Assembly: GCA_964016885.1 (NCBI GenBank)
Contig: OZ024750.1
Span: forward strand, 7,440,001 to 7,504,000
From: Eledone cirrhosa
Lineage: Eukaryota
Reading direction: 5' to 3'
DNA length: 64,000 nt
Shown: positions 8,973 through 52,689 of the stretch, in pieces
Layout: the number at the start of each line of letters is the position of its first letter
How positions within the stretch are numbered: position 1 is the stretch's first letter
Translations under genes and position numbers: made by a program
The notes under the pieces: generated by a model
Told to the model about the DNA's origin: nothing
The model's input: the letters and a program-made list of their open reading frames with translations, nothing else
The model's database searches: none

Positions 8973-9607
8973 ACTTTCTCGATTTGTCTTTGGCGTATTT
9001 TCTTAATTTCTTTCTCAGGAATTATCTCGGTATCTAAATGTAATAATCGTTCATTTAAAGACACTTTTGAATTCTGTTAAAATAAAACAAAGTGACAAAA
9101 AGTAGAAGATTCTATTTCAGCTGCTCCCTGTTTTTCTCAAACAGTTATCAATATAACTTCTTCACCTGCTGAAACGAAATATTTCATTTTCCCTTCTCCA
9201 TTCTCTTTTTTGTTGTCTCTTATTTTAAAACCTTTAATAATTTTTAACTCATATTAATTTCTTTTTCGTTTTTCGTATTATGAAGTTTAGGGAAATATTT
9301 TGGTGAACAGAAACATAACATTACAGAGGGAAGCAACGTTGTGTGATAGGGAAAAATACTTAGAGCGTTGGACAAAATACCGTGCATATTCGGTCCGGAT
9401 CTTACAGAGTTCAAGCCTCACCCAAACAATTTTATCTTTCATTTTTCAGGATCATTAAAATATAGTTCCAGTTAAGAGCGGTAGATTGACAGAATTATCA
9501 GAACGTGGGGCAACATGCCTTGCTCTATTCGTTTCAATTCTTTGCGTTCGGGTTTTAAATCCTACCGTAGACTTAATCCATCATCTAGGCTAAGCGGTAC
9601 TTTGGAT

Positions 9608-10300
9608 CAGGCATATCAAATATGCGGCCCGCGGCTCTTTACAAGCACACCTGCGACCCGCGGCTCTTTACAAGTACACCTGCGGCCCGCGGCCCTCTAC
9701 AAGCACACCTGCGGCCCGCGGCTCTTTACAAGCACACCTGCGGCTCTTTACAAGCACACCTGCGGCCCGCGGCCCTCTACAAGCACACCTGCGGCCCGCG
9801 GCTCTTTACAAGCACACCTGCGGCCCGCGGCTCTTTACAAGTACACCTGCGGCCCGCGGCCCTTTACAAGCACACCTGCGGCCCGCGGCTCTTTACAAGC
9901 ACACCTGCGGCTCTTTACAAGCACACCTGCGGCCCGCGGCCCTCTACAAGCACACCTGCGGCCCGCGGCTCTTTACAAGCACACCTGCGGCCCGCGGCTC
10001 TTTACAAGCACACCTGCGGCCCGCGGCTCTTTACAAGCACACCTGCGGCCCGCGGCTCTTTACAAGCACACCTGCGGCCCGCACAAAGGTTTTTACAACA
10101 CGAGCATGTTTCATCTTCGTAATATAAAATAAAAAAAATTAGTTGTAATGTGCGCAATTAGTTGTCGTGTGTGGTGGCCTTCAGAAAACACATATGTGAC
10201 ACATGTGGCCTTCAGACAACACATATGTGACACATGTGGCCTTCAGACAACACATATGTGACACATGTGGCCCTCGGGGGAGCCTCAGTTTGACAGCCTG
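9608..10300. mobile_element. hAT-type MITE inflated by internal minisatellites
   Basis: Termini CAGGCATATCAAA / TTTGACAGCCTG; 8-bp TSD ctttggat / ctttagat; subterminal GCGGCCC motifs. Confidence 0.78.
9623..10083. repeat. 29-bp GC-rich minisatellite, about 16 copies, inside the hAT MITE
   Basis: Unit tgcggcccgcggctctttacaagcacacc. Confidence 0.95.
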
Positions 10301-14066: not shown

Positions 14067-14072
14067 TTTATT
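14067..14072 (-). terminator. Candidate polyadenylation signal AATAAA for the allatotropin mRNA
   Basis: First AATAAA seen on the minus strand after the stop, about 400 nt downstream. The hexamer is common in AT-rich DNA. Confidence 0.3.
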
Positions 14073-14474: not shown

Positions 14475-14536
14475 CTAAGCCGTGTCACGCCCACGTAAAC
14501 CACCTACAAATTCATCCATTGAAATCACTCCATCAC
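14475..14536 (-). CDS. AT: Allatotropin-like precursor, last coding exon (62 nt including TAG)
   Basis: Acceptor ttttttttctttcag. The phase-1 entry gives (G)DGVISMDEFVGGLRGRDTA*, completing DTNGDGVISMDEF. Total CDS 224+98+62 = 384 nt = 127 aa plus stop. Confidence 0.9.
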
Positions 14537-14564
14537 CTGAAAGAAAAAAAAAAAGTCATGAAAT

Positions 14565-14617
<53 letters not shown>

Positions 14618-14734
14618 CACTCGATGACGTAGGTGAAACATTATGTCAGAAGCATAAAAATATTTTGATATAACGATTTGCGACTCCTACATTTATTCAT
14701 TTTGTGTGTACACACACACACACACACAGATACA

Positions 14735-14788
<54 letters not shown>

Positions 14789-14806
14789 TACAGACACACA
14801 CACACG

Positions 14807-14839
<33 letters not shown>

Positions 14840-14930
14840 TGGAAAATGTGTGAAATCCTTGGTACAGTTAGGTATATTTGAAAAAAGGAAAATAATGATT
14901 TCAACAATTTGATTTAATTTGATAATATTA

Positions 14931-15564
14931 TCTATATATATAAAACTGAGGTTGTCTGCCTGTCTATCGATTTTTGGCACACATCTCCTCTTAGAATCTC
15001 TCACGGAATTGCACCGAAATTGCTATACTTGTACATTGAGCCCTAGCGAAGACATCGGAAAAAAAATATTTCAAATTGACCCGCCCTATCTGACGAAATC
15101 GAATATAATGTATCGATTTTTGAGCGTAAGTGATCAGTTATTTCCCTTTGTTCTGTTTACATTGAGCGTCTGCGTGCAAAAATTAAAAAAATTACGCTGG
15201 CTTTCTCAGCGTTTAAAATGACATTAACACAATACACGAACAGTTGTCGAGCCAGCAAAATTTTGACCTGCAAAATTCATCAGTTCGAACATTAAGCTTC
15301 CGTTTTGCTTCATTTCCATTTAAATGCCTTTTAAAACAATATTTTTACTTGAAAACAATTTAAAGACTACGTAAAACAAGCAAATATTTCGTAAAAAAAA
15401 GCAAAAATTATATAAGTTTATTTAAAATATATGCATCTGTAAATTTCCTTAGGCGTGCAGACAGACAGTCGTGCAGACAGACTTTAAGCCAAAAAAGAAA
15501 CTTAACATTGTAACTTTAACACAGCCACTGAGCGACCCCGAGCAACGCCGGGCTTTACTGCTAG
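14931..15564 (+). mobile_element. Non-autonomous Helitron in the last allatotropin intron
   Basis: 5' TCTATATATATAAAA, subterminal hairpin CCCGAGCAACGCCGGG, 3' CTAG, inserted between A and T with no TSD. Confidence 0.8.
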
Positions 15565-16344
15565 TATTATTATAAAATTAAATCAAATTGTTTAGAACTA
15601 CAAGTAAAATCATTCTTTTCCTTTTTTAAAATATATATATATACATATATATATATATGATGATTTCTAAAGAATGAAACAGTTCTAGTCCTGTAGAATC
15701 TCATCTATATTAAAACTATATATATATATATAGACAGTCGATCGACAAGATCCCAGACCTCATTCGTTTAATGTGTGAGTGGAGCTCGTCAAATCGGACC
15801 GAGGAAACGATGTTTCCATTGGTCTTTCCAATTGCTAATACTATATACCACTTTTGTGCTTCCATATATATCACATTGATAGTTCCATACATATCACTTT
15901 TAAGCTTCCATATATATCAGTTTGAAGTTTCCATATTTATCACATTCTTTTTATTCTATTCAGTCGTGCGAATGTATCTAAGCAATGACAGCCATTGATA
16001 TGATTTATGGATGAAATAGAAATGCTGCCATCCGTGTATGGTTGGGTTGTTTGTGACATTTTGAAATCCAGTTCCGCTGATGTTTGTTTTACATTATATT
16101 CCATAATTCTACCAGTGTGTACTAAGTGACCCGTAACTCTTATAAACATGCACAGTGATGTTCAATGAGTTACAAAATTCAATGAGTTACAAAGTTTCTT
16201 AAATACTATAACTATAATATCTAATCATACGCATCTATATTCATGTCATTCTGTAGAACAAAGGTGACGTAAACAATCAAAATCCTTGGAAATATTGATT
16301 TATTACAAAAACACAAGGACACATAGACATGTTATGACTGATTT

Positions 16345-16560
16345 TACAAATCCCAGTACTTGATTAATACATCATCTTATCGACCCATTAAGGAAGAAAG
16401 TTAAAGTCAATTTGTATAAGATTTGAATTCAGAGCGTAAAGTAATTGTTTCTACTTTAGGAACAAGGCCAGCAATTACCCAGTACATTACTGGTACTTTA
16501 TTTTATCGACCCCGTAAGGATGAAAGGCAAAGTTAACCTCGGCGGGATTTGAACTCAGGT
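16345..16560 (-). mobile_element. Two tandem partial SINE S1 copies
   Basis: ctggtactttattttatcgaccccgtaaggatgaaaggcaaagttaacc core. Confidence 0.8.
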
Positions 16561-18451
16561 AATGTTACGAAATACCACAAGGCATGTACAAACTGAATTT
16601 ATGCTTGACTTTCATCTTTCTTTAGACGGCAAATGTTTCTTGTACATCAGTTTTAAGAGTTTCAATGTTAATATTTCGCTGAAAACAAAAGCATTTAAAA
16701 TGGCGTGCTCCTTATCTTTATTTAGAAAATTTTATGGGTGAGCAATAAATCTTCCACTTAACTATTGATGTGTTAGTAGTGTGTAGATTGTAGCCGACCT
16801 TTTTCAAGAATGTTTTATGGCATATTCAGGAGAGAAAGGACAGCAGCCATGACACATTTATTGGGTCTCCGATATAGGTGGGAAAGAAGGAGGAACTTAT
16901 TTCAAAATCAGAGATCTGATCTAAATTGTTGCAACAGTGTGATGTTCTGCTAAAGACACCCAAGAAACAGGCGGTAGTGTTAAACTGGACAAGGGGTTAA
17001 GTCTACCTGCCAAGAACCAAATGTTGGTATTAAAGTGGGTGTGTGATTAAGTCATTCACACAGGGACTAGTTGGTGGCATTCAGCTGCGCGAGGGATTAA
17101 TTCTACAACACAGAGACCAAGTCATAGTGTTAAACTGGGTAAGGGATTACAGCTACCATACAGGGACCAAGTGTTTGTGTTAAATTGAGCGAGAGATTAA
17201 GACTATTACATAAGAACCATAACGGTCCCTCCGTCTACTCAACCCCACGCAGAAGGCTTTGGTCAGCTTGAGTCATGGTAGAAGGCACTTGGAGCAAATC
17301 CGACAGTACGTGGTTACAAATTGTACTTCTTAACTGCACAGATATGCAGGAGCCACATTTTAGAAACATTTGTATAATGAAAATCATGGAAGAAGGTAAT
17401 AATTCAATTTATGGATACTTCAGAAATTAATTATTAATTTACAAAGTCTGTAACCGAATCTTGCTATCTATAATAATTAGATTGTAAATTTAATCTTTAC
17501 ATATTCTATTGACGCCATAATATTCGGTGTAATGGAAATCAAGGACCAATGCTATATTATGAGTGTTAGAGAAGACCGAATAATTATTTGTCTCAAAACA
17601 TCGGAGGATTGAATGATCAGAGTCTTCTCCGTCTCCAATGTCCAGATAAATCATAATTTAGTCAGTAATCCCTGATATTGGAATTATATAAATAATCTAT
17701 AGTTTGATGAATAAGCAGTTGGTTCAATTGTGATAACACTATTCAAATGGAATTAGTTAATTATTATGGCATTGTTTTGTTGTATAGATGAGAATAATGA
17801 TGATGATGACGATGGGGATGGTTGTGGTGTATATCTTCTTTCATTTTTCGTCTTACTAAGTTATACTGTTATATTTGTGGAGGGTCATGTTGGCCTAATA
17901 TTGCCAAAAATAATAATAAAACACACTCATTGGTTTGGATACTTTATGCATCATATTTATGGGGTTGTTTTTCTTTTCTATATTATATTTATTATATAAA
18001 TTGTGCTTATGCTATACTATAAACGATTTTTATTTGTTTGTAAAGATAATAAATAAGAAAAGAGAAATGGAGGAAAAAGATTTAAAAAGGGAAAGCGGTG
18101 AAAACTGCACGCCATTGGCTGGACAGTTCATTTCAGCTGCGTCATGCAAACAAGATGGCGGAAGCATTGTTACGGAAAACTGGCAGTAGCACACGCTGTT
18201 TCAGCCATTCCACCAGACGCGGCTCTTTCTTCAAGCAAGATACACTCTTCACGATTTCGTAAAAGAAAACAGCAGTTCGGAGACCAAGGACACCGGATGT
18301 CTCGTTGGCAACCTGCACAAAACGGAAGCAGTTAGCCAAATCTAGGCATTTTATTACTTTTCGTTCTTCTGCGTGCGTTATGGCCGACGGTGTCCGGATT
18401 TGTAGTTAATGAATAATTCTGAACTACAGTTTCAAATAAAAAGATATTTAC

Positions 18452-18549
18452 CGTTAGTGTCCAATTCAAGTGCTACTCTGTATGCCAAATCACTGTCGTA
18501 TGTCATAAGTTCAGCCAAGTCTTTCGGGGTCATCCAATTTCTGGCGCCT
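18452..18549 (-). CDS. AT: Allatotropin-like precursor, coding exon 2 (98 nt)
   Basis: Acceptor tttttttctattacag and donor G|GTAAAT. The phase-2 entry continues exon 1 in frame: (T)GARNWMTPKDLAELMTYDSDLAYRVALELDTN(G), resembling the acidic helical C-terminal region of allatotropin precursors. Not in the ORF track. Confidence 0.9.
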
Positions 18550-18930
18550 CTGTAATAGAAAAAAAACAAACATTTTCATATACACATAGTATATATAGAT
18601 AGATTGGTATATATATATATATATAAATTTTATTAGTATTAAAACTCTAATTCGGTATTGAGTACTCTTTACTCTCAGCCGTCAAACACATACGTATATA
18701 TATATATAGATGGGAAAAATAGCTAAAACCTAAATATAAACGCATGTGAATGTGTGGGCGCGCTTTTGTGTATGCATATGCAAGTATTTGTGTGTGCATT
18801 TGTGCATATGCAAGTATGTGTATGCGCGTGTGCCTGTGTGTATATGTGGTTCTATGCAAACATGATGTGTTTGTATATGTGTGTATGTCTCTGTGTGTAT
18901 ATGTGGTTATATGCAAACATGATGTGTTTG

Positions 18931-18962
<32 letters not shown>

Positions 18963-19480
18963 TGTATGTATGTATGTATGTATGTATGTATGTATGTATG
19001 TATGTATGTGCGTGTGTATGTTTGTACATATGCAAACATGATGTATATCTACGTGTTTGTGTATGTGTGTTGTAAAATTTCCTGTCGCCATTTTCCTATT
19101 GTAGAGTTGTTGATAAGGCTCTGGCTAATTTCGATGGTTCTGTCTGTCTCACCGCACACAGAAATAAATAAATCAGAGAGATTTTACTTTCATTTCAAAC
19201 ATCGATTCGATATCAGCGTTCTGTATGTAGTTAATTGCTGTTTACTTTATTTTCTTTGACTTAATCAAAGTCCGTTGTAGATATTTAAGTATGTGTTTAT
19301 GTTGGTCAGTTAATGTTTGCTCTATATATTTGTCATTACATTATAAAAACCAGTTCTGCAGTTCTACTTTCCTACCTTCCAAACTATTATAGAACCGTAG
19401 CCAGCTCGTTAAATCAATAGTGTTCCGCTATTATCAGCTGAATAGCCAACAGTTCGTATTTCATTAACTATAGTTTACAG

Positions 19481-19765
19481 CAGGCATGGGCAACCTTTCT
19501 TCGAGCAGTGGGCCGCATAGGATGTGGCTCATCATAAGGCGGGCCGCATAGGATGTGGCTCATCATAAGGTGGGCCACATAAGATGTGGCTCATATGGTG
19601 GGCTGCATAGGATGTGGATCATCATAAGGTGGGCCACATAAGATGTCACTCATCATAAGACGAGCCGCACAACTTGAAAAATTCAAGGAGTTTTGAAATT
19701 AGGTGTGGCATTCAGAAAGCCAAACAGGCGCATGTGGCTCGTGGGCCACAGTTTGTCCATGGCCT
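19481..19765. mobile_element. hAT-type MITE with about 5 internal 31-bp repeats, in allatotropin intron
   Basis: Termini CAGGCATGGGCAAC / GTTTGTCCATGGCCT; degenerate 8-bp TSD gtttacag / ttttagag; unit gggccgcataggatgtggctcatcataagg(c/t). Confidence 0.65.
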
Positions 19766-21124
19766 TTTTAGAGGGGGGGGGGGGGGTCAGCTTAATCTAT
19801 CGCTCTATTTAATACCACCACCTGGCCCATGGGTGCCTTTAATCGAGTCCGCTCTCATGTTAGTATTTAGGCCACATGTTCGGTCTGAAGTTATTTTCGT
19901 CACTCTTATCAGTCTCAGAGACCCTGAAAGGGTCATATGTACTCTTCACTCTCTGACTGAACAGCAAAAGAAACAAAAAACAAAGCAAAATAATACTAAT
20001 GATAATGATAATCATAATAATTCCACGGTTCGGTCCAACTCACTGTAAACAATGATTGTGTTAAGGTAGAGTTTAGTACTAGATATAGTAGGACTAAAAT
20101 ATTCTTTAGATTGCAGTATTGGGTGTAATGTTTATTAGTAGGATGCTGAAGAAGAGATAAATATATTCCCCTTCTCCCTGAAGTCAATTGATAAATAATG
20201 TAGATGAGGAAATGTCATATAATCGATTCTGCTTAATACATTTCTATGATATCTTATATCGAATGATTGACTCACAATGATGGCTAACGACATGGCTGCA
20301 GAAAGTTAGCAGCTTTATTTTCCGTTAATAGAAGAAATAATTATATCATTTTGTTATAGTTTACTATCTAATTACATTTTGTGTTTTTGCTTCCATCATA
20401 GTTTTATTTCAATTCTAATAGATCGAAACGTCTAATAAGATTTCTAAAATTTTATTTTCTTTGAGATGAAATTTTGAAAGAAATTATTTAAACAGTGATT
20501 CGGTAATTATTAAAGTTAGACTATAAGCTACTGAAGTGAAACAGTAGAATCAGTGGGAAAATAGCGATGGTTTGTATCTATAAATAGTAAATATAAAATG
20601 TTCACTGTGCAGAATAATTCAGTTTGTAGTAAGGAAGAGGGGAAATTTGATTGTAAACTAGTTTATTTCAGTTTCTGAACTTTATGAATTATTGGACACG
20701 TCTGAAAGTAATGGCGGAGTGGTTAAAGTGTTATAATATCCCACAGTGATATTATATTGTGTGAGTGCTAGAAAAGGGACTGTACATGTATTAATAATGT
20801 TAGATTCATCATAAATATTATTAGGCTCATTCAATAATATAATCATGGATGATCCAAATGAGAAACTATTTTCAGAGTCGTCTGTTATGGAATAGCATGT
20901 TAGTTATTTAGGTATTCTGCGATAACTCTTCACAACAAAACAGCTAGTTGTATTATAATATAACCCTGGGCAGATGAGAGAATAATAATTGTTACTACTT
21001 TTGGTACAAGGCCAGCAGGCAGTTACCCCAGTGCATTACTGGTACTTTATTTTATCGACCCCGTCGAATAGAAAATATACAGCTATAGATTGCATGAATA
21101 AAGAAGCAAAACAAAGAAAGCCAG

Positions 21125-21213
<89 letters not shown>

Positions 21214-21467
21214 TAAATTTAGCGAGAATCGCATTTCGGCGGGTAGAAATTAGCGAAACGCAACTTCCGTATTGTGCAGACAAGCGCTCCATGGATTTGA
21301 AGAAGATACCAGAGTTATAAACATAAGTTAAAAAGGTCATACAAACTGAGACGATGGTTCAGAAGCCATTAACCACCATAGCCCCAAAAAAGCGAACAAG
21401 CTAAGTGGGTAAAAAAAGGTGAATGTTAAGACTAAAGGAAAACTAAACAAAATAACTAAGTACGTAC

Positions 21468-21691
21468 GTTTCGGCAATTGACGGTGCCATGTCGTATGTA
21501 TCTTCAATTGTTCTTTTGCCAAAGCCATGAGCCATGCGATCAAGTATGTTGTTTTTGAATCCGTTTCCTACCCGCTTGTTACCTAATCGCTTAGGTTGAG
21601 ATTTTGTTGCATCAACTTCACAGCAACAGAGAAAAAGGATCAAGGACACACAACTTAATACACACAGGTTCCGGCTTTGTGACGTCTTCAT
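21468..21691 (-). CDS. AT: Allatotropin-like (allatotropin/orexin family) neuropeptide precursor, coding exon 1: signal peptide and mature peptide
   Basis: Encodes MKTSQSRNLCVLSCVSLILFLCCCEVDA-TKSQP-KR-LGN-KR-VGNGFKNNILDRMAHGF-G-KR-TIEDTYDMAPSIAE: hydrophobic signal ending VDA, dibasic sites, amide-donor Gly. The peptide fits the mollusc/annelid allatotropin pattern GF(K/R)...R(I/V)(A/S)HG(F/Y)amide. Start context accATGa; upstream acceptor ttttctttgtag ends at 21727; phase-2 donor AC|GTACGT at 21467. Confidence 0.93.
21521..21571 (-). other. Predicted mature peptide VGNGFKNNILDRMAHGF-amide (17 aa)
   Basis: Flanked by KR upstream and G-KR downstream in the precursor. Confidence 0.85.
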
Positions 21692-21876
21692 GGTCTTTGT
21701 GTTGGGGAGAATTGCAATTTAAAAATCTACAAAGAAAACAAACAAACAAACAAAAATAAAATCCAGATAAAAAGACGAATTCATTTATATAGACATGCAA
21801 ACATATACAAATACTTATACCGACACGGTATGTAAAATCTAAGATAAATTTAATGTGTATATATACATACATACAT

Positions 21877-22177: not shown

Positions 22178-22664
22178 TATTACTTCAAAATATTAATATT
22201 TTGAAGTAATATTAATAACTCCAGAAAACCTCACTGTAGAGTGCTTATAATCTGTTGTGAAACTTTATTCATTGATGAATTCATTGAACCTTGTGAAACT
22301 TTTAATTATATATATATATACATATATATATAACAAAGGAATGAATGAAGGAGTTACAAGCCGTTAAAACAAGTTCTTTATATAAATCTTACATATGTTT
22401 CGCCCACACGGGTTCCCCTATTTCCTCCTCTCTTACGATACTTATACCCTATTATATATATATAATAATATATATATATATGAAAAGATTCAGCTCCGGT
22501 TGAGCTCCGGCCGTTTTAACAGCTAGTTAGGATCTAGCTGTCGAAACGACCGGAGTTCAGCCATCCAGTTCCTGAATCTTTTCATATTACCCACTCTACT
22601 TCCGCAAGTATCGAGTACTCTGGTGGGTTATTGTCCACCTGGTTTTTTTTTTACCACACCTAGC

Positions 22665-24116: not shown

Positions 24117-24366
24117 TATATATAAATATATATATATATAAATACATATATATATATAATATATATATATAACGAAGGAATTGTGGTAAGGAACCAGATG
24201 GACTATAACGCACCAAAGTACTCAATACTTAGTGTAGTAGAGTTGGTAATAGGAACAAGTATGACCCCGACGACAGAGCTCAAACCGTTTCGACGGCTAT
24301 TTCTGCACTCAGTCCATAAATAGCCGTCGAAACGGCTAGAGCTCTGTCGTCGGGGTCATACTTGTT

Positions 24367-24431
<65 letters not shown>

Positions 24432-30430: not shown

Positions 30431-31853
30431 CACATGTGTATGTGTATGGCATAAGACTGCCAGAACTGATGAACCAGAACTGATGAACCAGAAATAAACG
30501 ACTAAACTCACCCCATATTTCATTAATGCTTAAACATTCAATGACTTATAATATCGATCTTATTCAATAAACTAATTCAATAAATAGGAAAGACATAATA
30601 ATAATAACATCAAGAATAAGAATAAAAATAATAACTTATAAATACGCATACATATATATGTGAGTCTGTGTGTATGTGTGGGCGAACTCGTGTGTGTGAG
30701 CTCATGTGTGTGTATTAGTGAGCTCGTGTGTGAGCTCGTGTGTGTGTGTGTGAAACTGTCTTTCCGTGTGTGTGTGTGAGCTCGTGTGTGTGAGTGTGAG
30801 CTCGTCTGTGTGTGTGTGTGTGTGAGACTCTCTCTCTCTCTCCGTGTGTGTGTGTGAGCTCGTCTGTGTGTGAGTAAGTCTGTCTTTCCGCATGTGTATG
30901 TGAGCTAGTATGTGTGTATGTGTGTGAGTCTCTCTCTCCGCATGGATGTGAGCTCGTCTGTGTATAGAAATTGGAAGAAAAATATGAACAAAACAATTGG
31001 AACAAAACAATTGACTGATGTATAATAAAAACTGAAGTAGCAGTTTGATTACGACTTGTATTGGAATTCATTACAGAAAATATAATATAAAATGTCCCTA
31101 AATAATTTGATTTACCAAATTCCATTCTAGTTTTATCCCAGACTCTTTCTCACCTTAAGTGCTACTAAAACCAAACTGTTAAAGAATGGCAGAAATTGAA
31201 ACTTTTTAAACATGTTTTTTTCTTCTCGTTTTTAAGTTTTTCTAGAATTAATGACGGATAAAAAGATATTAAAAAGATATAAAAATGTAAAAATAATATT
31301 TTAAATTCTCTTTTGAAAAGATTTTTTGATTGAAAATTTTTAGGGAAATTTTCGTTGCTTTCGTTAAATGCGGATGGTTTTATAGATTGGGGGTGGGGTC
31401 GGATGGTATGTTTAGGTGAAAATCTGACTTATTGAACTATTGAAGTAAACCAATTCAATCAATCCTTCTTTCTTTCTTTCTATCTTTCTTTCATTCTTTC
31501 TTTCCTTCTTTCTTTCTTTCTTTCTTTCCTTCGCCATCCACCCCCAGTAATGAGAGACATATCGTGAGAATATAAATCTCATGGAAATTCCCCCAACGCA
31601 GTTTTCGTTTTAATCACCGGTGGAGATCTCCCCCACAACTCAAGACACGCCCAGTGGGGGAGGGTCTTATTATAATCTCATAATATATATATATATTATA
31701 TATATATTTATATATATATATGTAAATATGATAATAATGGAGCTGCGGCGCTGCAAATGGGTTACATATGAAAAAGTTTGTCCTCATCAGTGGCCTTCCA
31801 ACCGTCGTAGGCATTTCTACGACGGTTGGAAGGCCACTGATGAGGACAAACTT

Positions 31854-51772: not shown

Positions 51773-52525
51773 CTAGGGCGGGTAAAATTCCCGAGATCCA
51801 TGGACGAGTTCTCTCCAGCGGTCTCTGTCCCTCATTATCGCTGCCATGTCTTGCGTCTCCAACAGACCAGTGTCTATCCTTAAGGCATTAACATACGTTA
51901 ACCTTGGTCTTCCTCTTCCAGTGTGTCCATGTAGGGGCTCCCACAGGAGCACTGAGTGCAATGTCAACTCTGGATGTCCGTGAGCATGTCCAGTTAACCT
52001 CAGTCTCCTCTGTGTCACTTTTGAGCTGACTTTTGGGAGGCTCCCATACAGCTCTGAGATTTTCATCCTCAGTGTATACTGATTAATGTTCAGAGCTTTC
52101 CTCAGCATTCTCGTGTAGCACCCATCCACCATCTGAGAGAGTTTCTTGGTCAGTGTCCAAGTCTCAGACCCGTACAGCAGTACAGACTCCACTACAGCAA
52201 TGAAGAGGCGAATTTTCAGGTCTTTACGAAGGTCCGACTTCCACACCGATCTCAAGCTGTGGCACGCCGCACAGGCTTTGCTCTTCCTCTCAACCACATC
52301 ATCTTCCATATTGCCAATCTTTGCTCCCAAATACAGGAAGCCCTCAACCAATTCTAGCGGCTTCCCGCCTACATTAGTAATTCCCTCTGGCTTCTCAATA
52401 TTCTCTACCAGATATTTTGTCTTAATCTCATTCATTCTCACCCCCACACTTATCGACACAGTCTCAACCTCCCGCATCAAATCCTCTGCCTCCTTCACTG
52501 TATTTGTCGTCAGCAAATTCAGCAT
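51773..52525 (-). mobile_element. 5'-truncated non-LTR retrotransposon (RTE/RTE-X-like), C-terminal part of the reverse-transcriptase ORF
   Basis: 250-aa open frame with FLYLG, SVLLYGSETWTLT, RLRLTGH, GRGRPRLTY and DRDRWRELV motifs; stop followed by a short (ATAG)n tail. Confidence 0.9.
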
Positions 52526-52689
52526 CTGATATCTTTCTCGCCTTAACTCTACTGCTCTGAGCCGTAATATATATGTATGGTCTCCGTTTATTTTTGAGAT
52601 TCGAAACCGATTCGGTAAAGGTAACTATAGAAAGTAAAGTCAATTTTTTAAAATTTATTTTGAAACTTTTTCATTATTTGCTAAACCTG

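Follow-up and report, generated by a model that had tools for sequence, protein, structure and literature searches.

Allatotropins and orexins are connected by a conserved domain of their precursors (PMC5818035). In Aplysia, the ATRP receptors signal through Gq and Gs, and the N-terminal Gly-Phe of ATRP is critical for its potency (PMC10089201; N-terminally extended peptides lie outside that study). The gastric ganglion of Octopus vulgaris expresses an orexin2-type receptor (PMC5736919), and proteins from O. vulgaris and O. bimaculoides stand among allatotropin precursors (PMC6425005, 2019, supplementary file 3, part 106). The locus considered here lies on the minus strand of a window of 64,000 nucleotides, which is the whole stretch of Eledone cirrhosa DNA that was analysed.

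The gene has three coding exons, which join into a 127-residue protein identical to the one predicted from the letters alone; the three minus-strand exons, GT-AG sites and phases (2, then 1) proposed in the sequence-only reading are thus borne out. Coding exon 1 (21468-21691, 224 nt, phase 2) carries the signal peptide, the cleavage sites, the mature peptide and the start of the C-terminal propeptide. Exon 2 (18452-18549) has 98 nt and a cumulative phase of 1. Exon 3 (14475-14536, 62 nt including the TAG stop) finishes the EF-hand-like loop (residues 105-116), which belongs to the conserved domain at the C-terminus. Both introns start with GT and end with a pyrimidine tract and AG. Intron 1 (18550-21467, 2918 nt, GT-AG, phase 2) contains microsatellites as well as a repeat of high copy number (about 21230-21414), and intron 2 (14537-18451, 3915 nt, GT-AG, phase 1) interrupts the EF-hand-like loop at Gly108.

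A single 643-nt contig from run X6 joins all three exons and spans both proposed junctions (21468/18549 and 18452/14536). It covers exon 1 at 21724-21468 with one mismatch and no gaps, and exon 2 at 18549-18450 with no mismatches; its 30-letter loose ends agree, letter for letter, with the beginnings of exons 2 and 3 and with the end of exon 1. X6 is taken to be RNA because the exons are joined in its contig. In runs X1 and X2, which come from another organism and a second study and are presumed to be RNA, the exons are joined at the same two places. The locus is a spliced gene, and its exon structure is not due to chance. No longer or fused form of exon 1 appears at E<=1 among 9 candidates, which is weak evidence.

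The first coding exon also includes a part of the 5' UTR (21692-21726), downstream of an AG acceptor at 21728-21727. In the X6 contig, 142 letters precede 21724, and about 140 of the contig's letters have no place on 21727-21850. The depth of X6 is nil at 21734-21850 (21725-21765 was skipped as a repeat). The acceptor and the unplaced letters suggest that another, non-coding exon lies upstream at the 5' end, so that the gene likely has at least four exons; two strict-consensus donors are present upstream of exon 1, at 31153 and 58820. The 3' UTR is predicted to extend over 14474-14072, to the first AATAAA at 14072, and the X6 contig, judged by length, would stop at about 14391, within a (TA)n run.

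The protein is identical to O. vulgaris ADK38661 (P0001) at 106 of 121 aligned residues (88%), and the same figures hold for O. bimaculoides LOC106873697 (P0003). The core GFKNNILDRMAHGF is identical in the three species. In a tree of 17 rows, with no outgroup from other families, the protein forms an octopod clade with O. vulgaris, O. bimaculoides and Argonauta (98/98), and this clade is sister to three squid/cuttlefish-like precursors (P0042, P0050 and P0167; 99/98). The tree, the peptide motif and the C-terminal domain agree with the family first proposed, and by these comparisons the gene is an allatotropin/orexin-family precursor and the octopod orthologue. There is nothing remarkable in the gene itself, since an allatotropin orthologue is expected in any further octopod. 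Its description as a hidden gene finds no support; octopus precursors with 88% identity have already been deposited. The label "sensorin" on ADK38661 in GenBank looks wrong, because the record has the allatotropin motif and stands among allatotropin precursors. Public records appear to mislabel octopus allatotropin as sensorin, as uncharacterized or as an EF-hand protein. A search of main texts for the peptide strings and five accessions returned no paper, and one supplement of Albertin 2022 gave no match; other papers and their tables may already cover the peptide or the candidate editing site discussed below.

Some molluscs (scaphopods, Deroceras) have second allatotropin genes, and the N-terminus of the present peptide is atypical. 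Both points favour the idea, raised in the sequence-only reading, of a derived cephalopod paralogue with a receptor preference or tissue use of its own; it would stand beside a gene for the canonical 14-mer. Five genome searches do not bear this out. With exon 1 as the query, one strong match was obtained among 9 candidates scored, the other three having E values of 1-3.4. The P0001 query gave three matches, which are the three exons of the locus, and the P0041 query gave two, both at the locus. Each of two degenerate patterns matched the genome once, at the locus, with 0 and 1 control matches. Only the best candidates were scored (for example, 104 of 291 in the receptor search), so a very divergent second precursor or receptor gene could escape, and the copy count is a lower bound. 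Within these limits, no second allatotropin gene was found and the gene is single-copy. A single receptor locus was also found, the tree fits simple orthology, and the precursor of Idiosepius has the same propeptide motif, TI(E/Q)DTY(D/E)L. The paralogue is thus largely refuted and is rejected as highly improbable. A single-copy orthologue identical to a described octopus precursor had been named as the result that would remove the novelty; this is essentially what is seen, with an identity to the deposited precursors of 88%, not 100%.

The precursor begins with a predicted signal peptide (residues 1-28, 21608-21691), whose hydrophobic core is seen from hydropathy alone (9-residue windows that begin at residues 9-18 score 2.5 or more); it would come off after Ala28, at the end of VDA. 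Residues 44-60, aligned with 16 relatives, show one peptide, GF(K/R)...R-x-x-HG(F/Y), followed by Gly-Lys-Arg. A prohormone convertase would cut after KR40 and at GKR58-60 (the amidation and cleavage signal, 21512-21520), and Gly58 would supply the C-terminal amide. The predicted mature peptide is VGNGFKNNILDRMAHGF-amide (residues 41-57, 21521-21571), with a calculated MH+ of 1888.96 if processed in this way. As a prediction, the dibasic cleavage into a 17-mer with a three-residue extension holds up, and an amidated 17-residue peptide is likely released by cuts at KR and GKR. Arg at P6 favours convertase cleavage, and the cut after KR40 is favoured because Arg35 occupies this position. If this second KR, a perfect site, were left uncut, a 22-mer starting with LGNKR and specific to this species would result (calculated MH+ 2457.30). 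The first KR sits where other octopods cut and internal dibasic sites can be skipped; given the Arg at P6, a preference known in general, such a product is nevertheless very unlikely.

The C-terminal D-x-(N/D)-x-D-G loop (residues 105-116) is identical in the O. vulgaris and O. bimaculoides orthologues, both of which match Pfam EF-hand_5 (E 9e-5, with a score below the curated cut-off). The loop is visible in most of the allatotropin precursors compared.

The canonical lophotrochozoan tetradecapeptide has 14 residues, with R-x-x-R abutting Gly1-Phe2, and this arrangement is absent here. In the alignment, R-x-x-R directly precedes the peptide in 13/13 non-octopod precursors and in 0/4 octopod ones. 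Ahead of (G/R)F, Arg occupies both -4 and -1 in all of the non-octopod rows (13/13), whereas the octopod rows have Arg at -1 in 0/4 and keep that at -4 in 3/4. With the usual cutting site lost in octopuses, the predicted peptide exceeds that of other molluscs by three residues, and the aligned rows indicate that the extension is octopod-wide. In an octopod ancestor, the last Arg of the R-x-(K/R/Q)-R site would have given way to the present Asn, and the former P4 Arg would likely have joined a new KR site, creating the extension. A later duplication of 15 nt in this species would have added a second KR and a discarded LGN tripeptide. The tandem copies, KRLGN and KRVGN (21563-21592), are alike at 12/15 nt; they were found by alignment and are absent from the automated repeat listing. 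O. vulgaris, O. bimaculoides and runs X1/X2 have a single unit, so that, of the species compared, only this one carries the duplication. As a consequence of the duplication, the predicted 17-mer departs from its orthologues at residue 1 only.

The same gene could instead yield the canonical 14-mer, GFKNNILDRMAHGF-amide (calculated MH+ 1618.83), through trimming by an aminopeptidase or through cleavage after Asn, the extended form being an intermediate and D-Phe2 being possible. Gly-Phe-Lys stands at the canonical start in 4/4 octopod rows, Aplysia ATRP needs an N-terminal Gly-Phe, and aminopeptidases are abundant in Aplysia membranes and haemolymph (PMC10089201). However, none of the four octopod rows has a basic residue before GFK, the X-G-N tripeptide is conserved in three species and in runs X1/X2, and no enzyme for so exact a cut was found. 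Trimming is therefore unlikely, and the 17-mer is the preferred product. In this 17-mer, Phe would be residue 5, given the predicted processing, versus position 2 in the D-Phe2 peptides (D2-ATRP, conomap-Vt). This shift would therefore remove the D-Phe receptor switch of Aplysia, and the octopod-wide loss of R-x-x-R offers a natural test of whether that switch is dispensable.

The X6 contig has an A>G change at 21545 (ATA>ATG, Ile49>Met, residue 9 of the peptide), which is a candidate A-to-I editing site or an allele; none of the DNA contigs of run X3 reaches this position. The position lies in a predicted imperfect RNA duplex of exon 1 (21515-21685), where about 21679-21630 pairs with 21570-21520. 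Tests of the duplex give mixed results. The fold of exon 1 as a whole does not stand out (z -1.08, 28 of 200 shuffles). The best 171-nt stretch of it, whose bounds were picked after viewing the fold, is unusual (2 of 300 dinucleotide shuffles), as it also is in best-window scoring (synonymous permutations, 0 of 120; mononucleotide shuffles, 0 of 120). The rest of the 64,000-nt window offers no better pairing partner (best 29 of 41). If the change is editing, a mature neuropeptide ligand would be recoded. A broader scenario can be imagined, in which octopods rebuilt allatotropin signalling: the shifted site would move Phe from position 2, abolish the L/D-Phe switch and leave one receptor, and in this species the ligand would be diversified by A-to-I editing instead, which, guided by the duplex between the signal-peptide and mature-peptide codons of exon 1, would recode Ile9 to Met. 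Taken as a whole, this scenario is quite improbable.

One allatotropin/orexin-type receptor locus was found (G000:C3:194.39-194.75 Mb). It is 95% identical to the "orexin receptor type 2" of O. bimaculoides, and the other receptor loci scored are at most 43-44% identical (104 of 291 candidates scored in one search). The DRWYAIC pattern has no match in the genome because the C3 receptor has ERWYAIC at this place; the receptor is matched by a shifted pattern, and six other loci inspected read DRY, DRF, DRL or ERY. None of the 37 matches to the C3 receptor is an Aplysia protein. The 17-mer likely acts through this one receptor as a modulator of nerve and muscle, with feeding and gut muscle as likely targets, and by analogy with the Aplysia receptors, coupling to Gq and Gs is likely. 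Cone-snail conomaps are allatotropin mimics (PMC13311285), and the Argonauta relative evolves fast (67% identity, HNF for HGF), which could suggest a venom or salivary "doppelganger" peptide acting on prey. Such a role is extremely doubtful: the gene is single-copy, the 14-residue core is invariant in three octopus species, and a survey of salivary glands in which a model for allatotropin was applied names, in the accessible part of its main text, stanniocalcin, luqin, myosuppressin, tachykinin and neurotensin mimics and no allatotropin (bioRxiv 10.64898/2026.02.02.703354). Overall, the evidence is very probably best explained by a single-copy octopus allatotropin orthologue, cleaved at KR and GKR into an amidated 17-mer that would modulate nerve and muscle through one allatotropin/orexin-type receptor. 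In tests of octopus orexin/allatotropin receptors, the 17-mer should be synthesised besides the 14-mer.

The closest known precursors are O. vulgaris ADK38661.1 / A0A1W5FUE7, whose record is labelled "sensorin", and O. bimaculoides Ocbimv22025246 / LOC106873697, entered as an uncharacterized or EF-hand protein. Both have an identical GNGFKNNILDRMAHGFGKR and the same C-terminal domain. The present precursor differs from them by five additional residues (the 15-nt duplication, with its second KR site), by a predicted peptide that starts with Val instead of Leu, and by one more Cys in the signal peptide. Argonauta hians GAB1602798.1 (P0041, a hypothetical protein) belongs to the octopod clade and is 67% identical to P0001. 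It has no Arg before GFK and no upstream KR; its peptide appears to follow the signal peptide, and its diverged core ends with MAHNF.

The decapodiform allatotropins (Idiosepius notoides 287482; P0042, P0050, P0167) share with this precursor the GFK start, the R-x-AHGF-GKR end, a similar propeptide and the LDxNxDG loop. Unlike here, they retain R-x-Q-R right before GFK, which predicts a 14-mer, and the middle of their peptide reads (D/N)NVSNRI. Aplysia ATRP, with its receptors ATRPR1 and ATRPR2, shares the precursor plan, a GF...R-x-AHG(F/Y)-amide peptide and an orexin-type GPCR. The Aplysia peptide is a 14-mer with L- and D-Phe2 forms and at least two receptors of opposite preference (PMC10089201), whereas here a 17-mer with Phe at position 5 is predicted and one receptor gene was found.

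The oyster allatotropins (GFRQSIVDRMGHGF-amide, which MS has confirmed for C. gigas) share the I-(V/L/I)-D-R-M-x-HGF core with octopus (PMC4200219), and the oyster peptide, unlike that of octopus, is a canonical 14-mer that follows RQKR or RSKR. The middle of the octopus peptide is therefore not unusual: the stretch NNILDRM, which had been called divergent, recurs unchanged in the two Octopus species and resembles SIVDRM of oyster.

The allatotropin/orexin-family precursor gene on the minus strand of the window is real and, as an orthologue, ordinary, with one minor change in predicted processing that octopods share. Coding exon 1 (21691-21468, 224 nt) opens with the ATG at 21691 and is followed by GT after 21468, while exon 2 (18549-18452, 98 nt) and exon 3 (14536-14475, 62 nt including the TAG) are each preceded by a pyrimidine tract and AG. 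The intron phases are 2, then 1, and the spliced product has 127 residues, so that the three-exon model of the sequence-only reading is correct to the base. A 643-nt contig from the public sequencing run X6 contains exons 1 and 2, the former with a single mismatch and the latter without any, and the letters of its loose ends are exactly those of the adjoining exons. The predicted joins are present in this contig, and they occur at the same places in contigs from X1 and X2, runs on another organism from another study. Since the library kind of X6 is unrecorded and the run shares its study with DNA runs that contain the stretch, it is X1 and X2 that give independent support for splicing. The first ~140 letters of the X6 contig do not run on into 21727-21850, and just upstream of coding exon 1 there is an AG acceptor (21728-21727, minus strand); an additional, non-coding first exon is therefore likely.

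Outside the gene, the window consists of microsatellites and repeats. By eye, no second gene was recognised among 75 frames of at least 120 aa, barring a probable piece of a retrotransposon (51773-52624, minus strand), whose open frame of 283 aa resembles the C-terminal portion of a LINE reverse transcriptase. Beside a (TA)n run, some 119 nt (24251-24369) form an almost perfect, MITE-like palindrome, with an apparent relative near 22350-22430. The first coding intron holds an interspersed repeat of very high copy (21230-21414; summed contig depth >10,000 in the DNA run X3), and some 4 kb past the 3' end of the gene a 29-nt unit is repeated in a GC-rich tandem array (~9590-10130).

A protein search with exon 1 gave one match, Octopus vulgaris ADK38661.1, whose cluster includes O. 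bimaculoides LOC106873697; the window protein is identical to each at 106 of 121 aligned residues. The allatotropin precursor block in supplementary file 3 of De Oliveira et al. 2019 (PMC6425005) contains both Octopus proteins and an Idiosepius precursor. ADK38661.1 (A0A1W5FUE7) is deposited as "sensorin", yet it has the allatotropin peptide, and studies treating it as sensorin may really have measured allatotropin. The same file holds a second Idiosepius transcript, idiosepiusNotoides.84677, whose sequence becomes different immediately past the peptide; squid allatotropin transcripts may thus be alternatively spliced or retain an intron.

A broader search yielded 126 matches, for the most part EF-hand proteins, 12 of which carry the motif [HR]G[FY]GK[RK]. 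The top match, Argonauta hians GAB1602798.1, has HNF replacing HGF; annotated as hypothetical, it is a fast-evolving allatotropin precursor devoid of the dibasic site before the peptide. A tree was built from 17 rows (the window protein, the two Octopus proteins, the Argonauta protein, the squid/cuttlefish-like precursor P0167 and the 12 motif-bearing matches; the other 113 matches were excluded). The window protein and the three named octopod proteins form one clade (98/98), sister to three precursors resembling that of Idiosepius (99/98).

The 3.0-Gb genome was searched with exon 1, ADK38661.1, the Argonauta protein and two degenerate peptide-end patterns, and this locus alone matched, a count which is a lower bound because such searches score the best candidates only. 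Any gene of the canonical form R-x-x-HG(F/Y)GKR would be expected to match both patterns, unless its motif is interrupted by an intron. The proposal of a derived cephalopod paralogue is therefore not supported. Database deposits and published lists already include the precursor of two congeners or relatives. No paper turned up in main-text literature searches with the peptide strings and the accessions, and none of the titles listed for allatotropin together with octopus or cephalopod dealt specifically with the octopus peptide; subscription papers lay outside the coverage.

The predicted product, VGNGFKNNILDRMAHGF-amide, differs from the two Octopus peptides at residue 1 only. In the alignment, Arg occupies positions -4 and -1 before the (G/R)F of the peptide in 13 of 13 rows from outside the octopods. 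None of the four octopod rows has Arg at -1, and three keep the Arg at -4, inside K-R-(L/V)-G-N. The simplest account of the octopod extension, judging from these sequences, would be that the final Arg of the R-x-x-R site disappeared in an octopod ancestor and that cleavage moved three residues upstream. In E. cirrhosa, the 15-nt KRLGN unit is duplicated (21592-21563; 12 of 15 nt alike); the duplication is present in the transcript and absent from both Octopus proteins and from X1/X2. Extended N-termini also occur in one chiton and one brachiopod precursor (PMC6425005, supplementary file 3) and in a mosquito (PMC9387463). The NNILDRM middle, previously regarded as divergent, is not unusual: its counterpart in oyster allatotropins is SIVDRMGHGF (PMC4200219).

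The signal peptide would be removed after Ala28, convertases would cleave after KR35, after KR40 and at GKR, and Gly58 would supply the amide. The C-terminal propeptide contains the conserved precursor domain of the family (PMC5818035), in which an EF-hand-like loop (Pfam E 9e-5, under the cut-off) is a putative calcium-binding feature; an EF-hand site is likewise noted in mosquito allatotropin (PMC9387463). One allatotropin/orexin-type receptor gene was found, on contig C3 of the E. cirrhosa genome, with two of its exons (194393921-194394262 and 194748120-194748503) about 354 kb apart. By analogy with Aplysia (PMC10089201), it would signal via Gq and Gs. Oesophagus and gut muscle are targets of the family (PMC13311285), and the O. 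vulgaris gastric ganglion expresses an orexin2-type receptor (PMC5736919).

Two side leads, a possible recoding and the D-Phe switch, are cheap to test. Over 357 exon letters the X6 contig departs from the genome only once, at 21545, where A>G on the mRNA strand changes Ile (ATA) to Met at residue 9 of the mature peptide; the evidence is one contig of depth 10.5, from a sample other than that of the DNA runs, which do not cover 21545. RNA editing and an allele are about equally probable. Coleoid neural transcripts are commonly recoded (PMC9068888), and the site lies inside a predicted imperfect duplex of ~50 bp that pairs signal-peptide with mature-peptide codons. The best 171-nt segment (-51.7 kcal/mol) folds better than 120 of 120 synonymous permutations, its length having been picked after viewing the fold; folding of the whole exon 1 is unremarkable (z -1.08). 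X1/X2 and the two Octopus proteins have A or Ile at this site; like the reliance on one contig of that depth from a different sample, this counts against editing.

In Aplysia, allatotropin-related peptide (ATRP) has L- or D-Phe at position 2, and each form prefers another receptor; ATRP minus its first two residues is nearly inactive at the receptor ATRPR2 (PMC10089201). The assay of the Aplysia isomerase covered position 2 (PMC11277431). Whereas Phe is at position 2 in Aplysia ATRP, it is residue 5 of the predicted E. cirrhosa 17-mer, and the Aplysia switch would therefore not apply. This predicted absence of an Aplysia-like D-Phe switch fits the single receptor gene; with a receptor count that covers E. 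cirrhosa, and a C3 gene that could be assigned to neither ATRPR1 nor ATRPR2, we offer the link between the two as a hypothesis.
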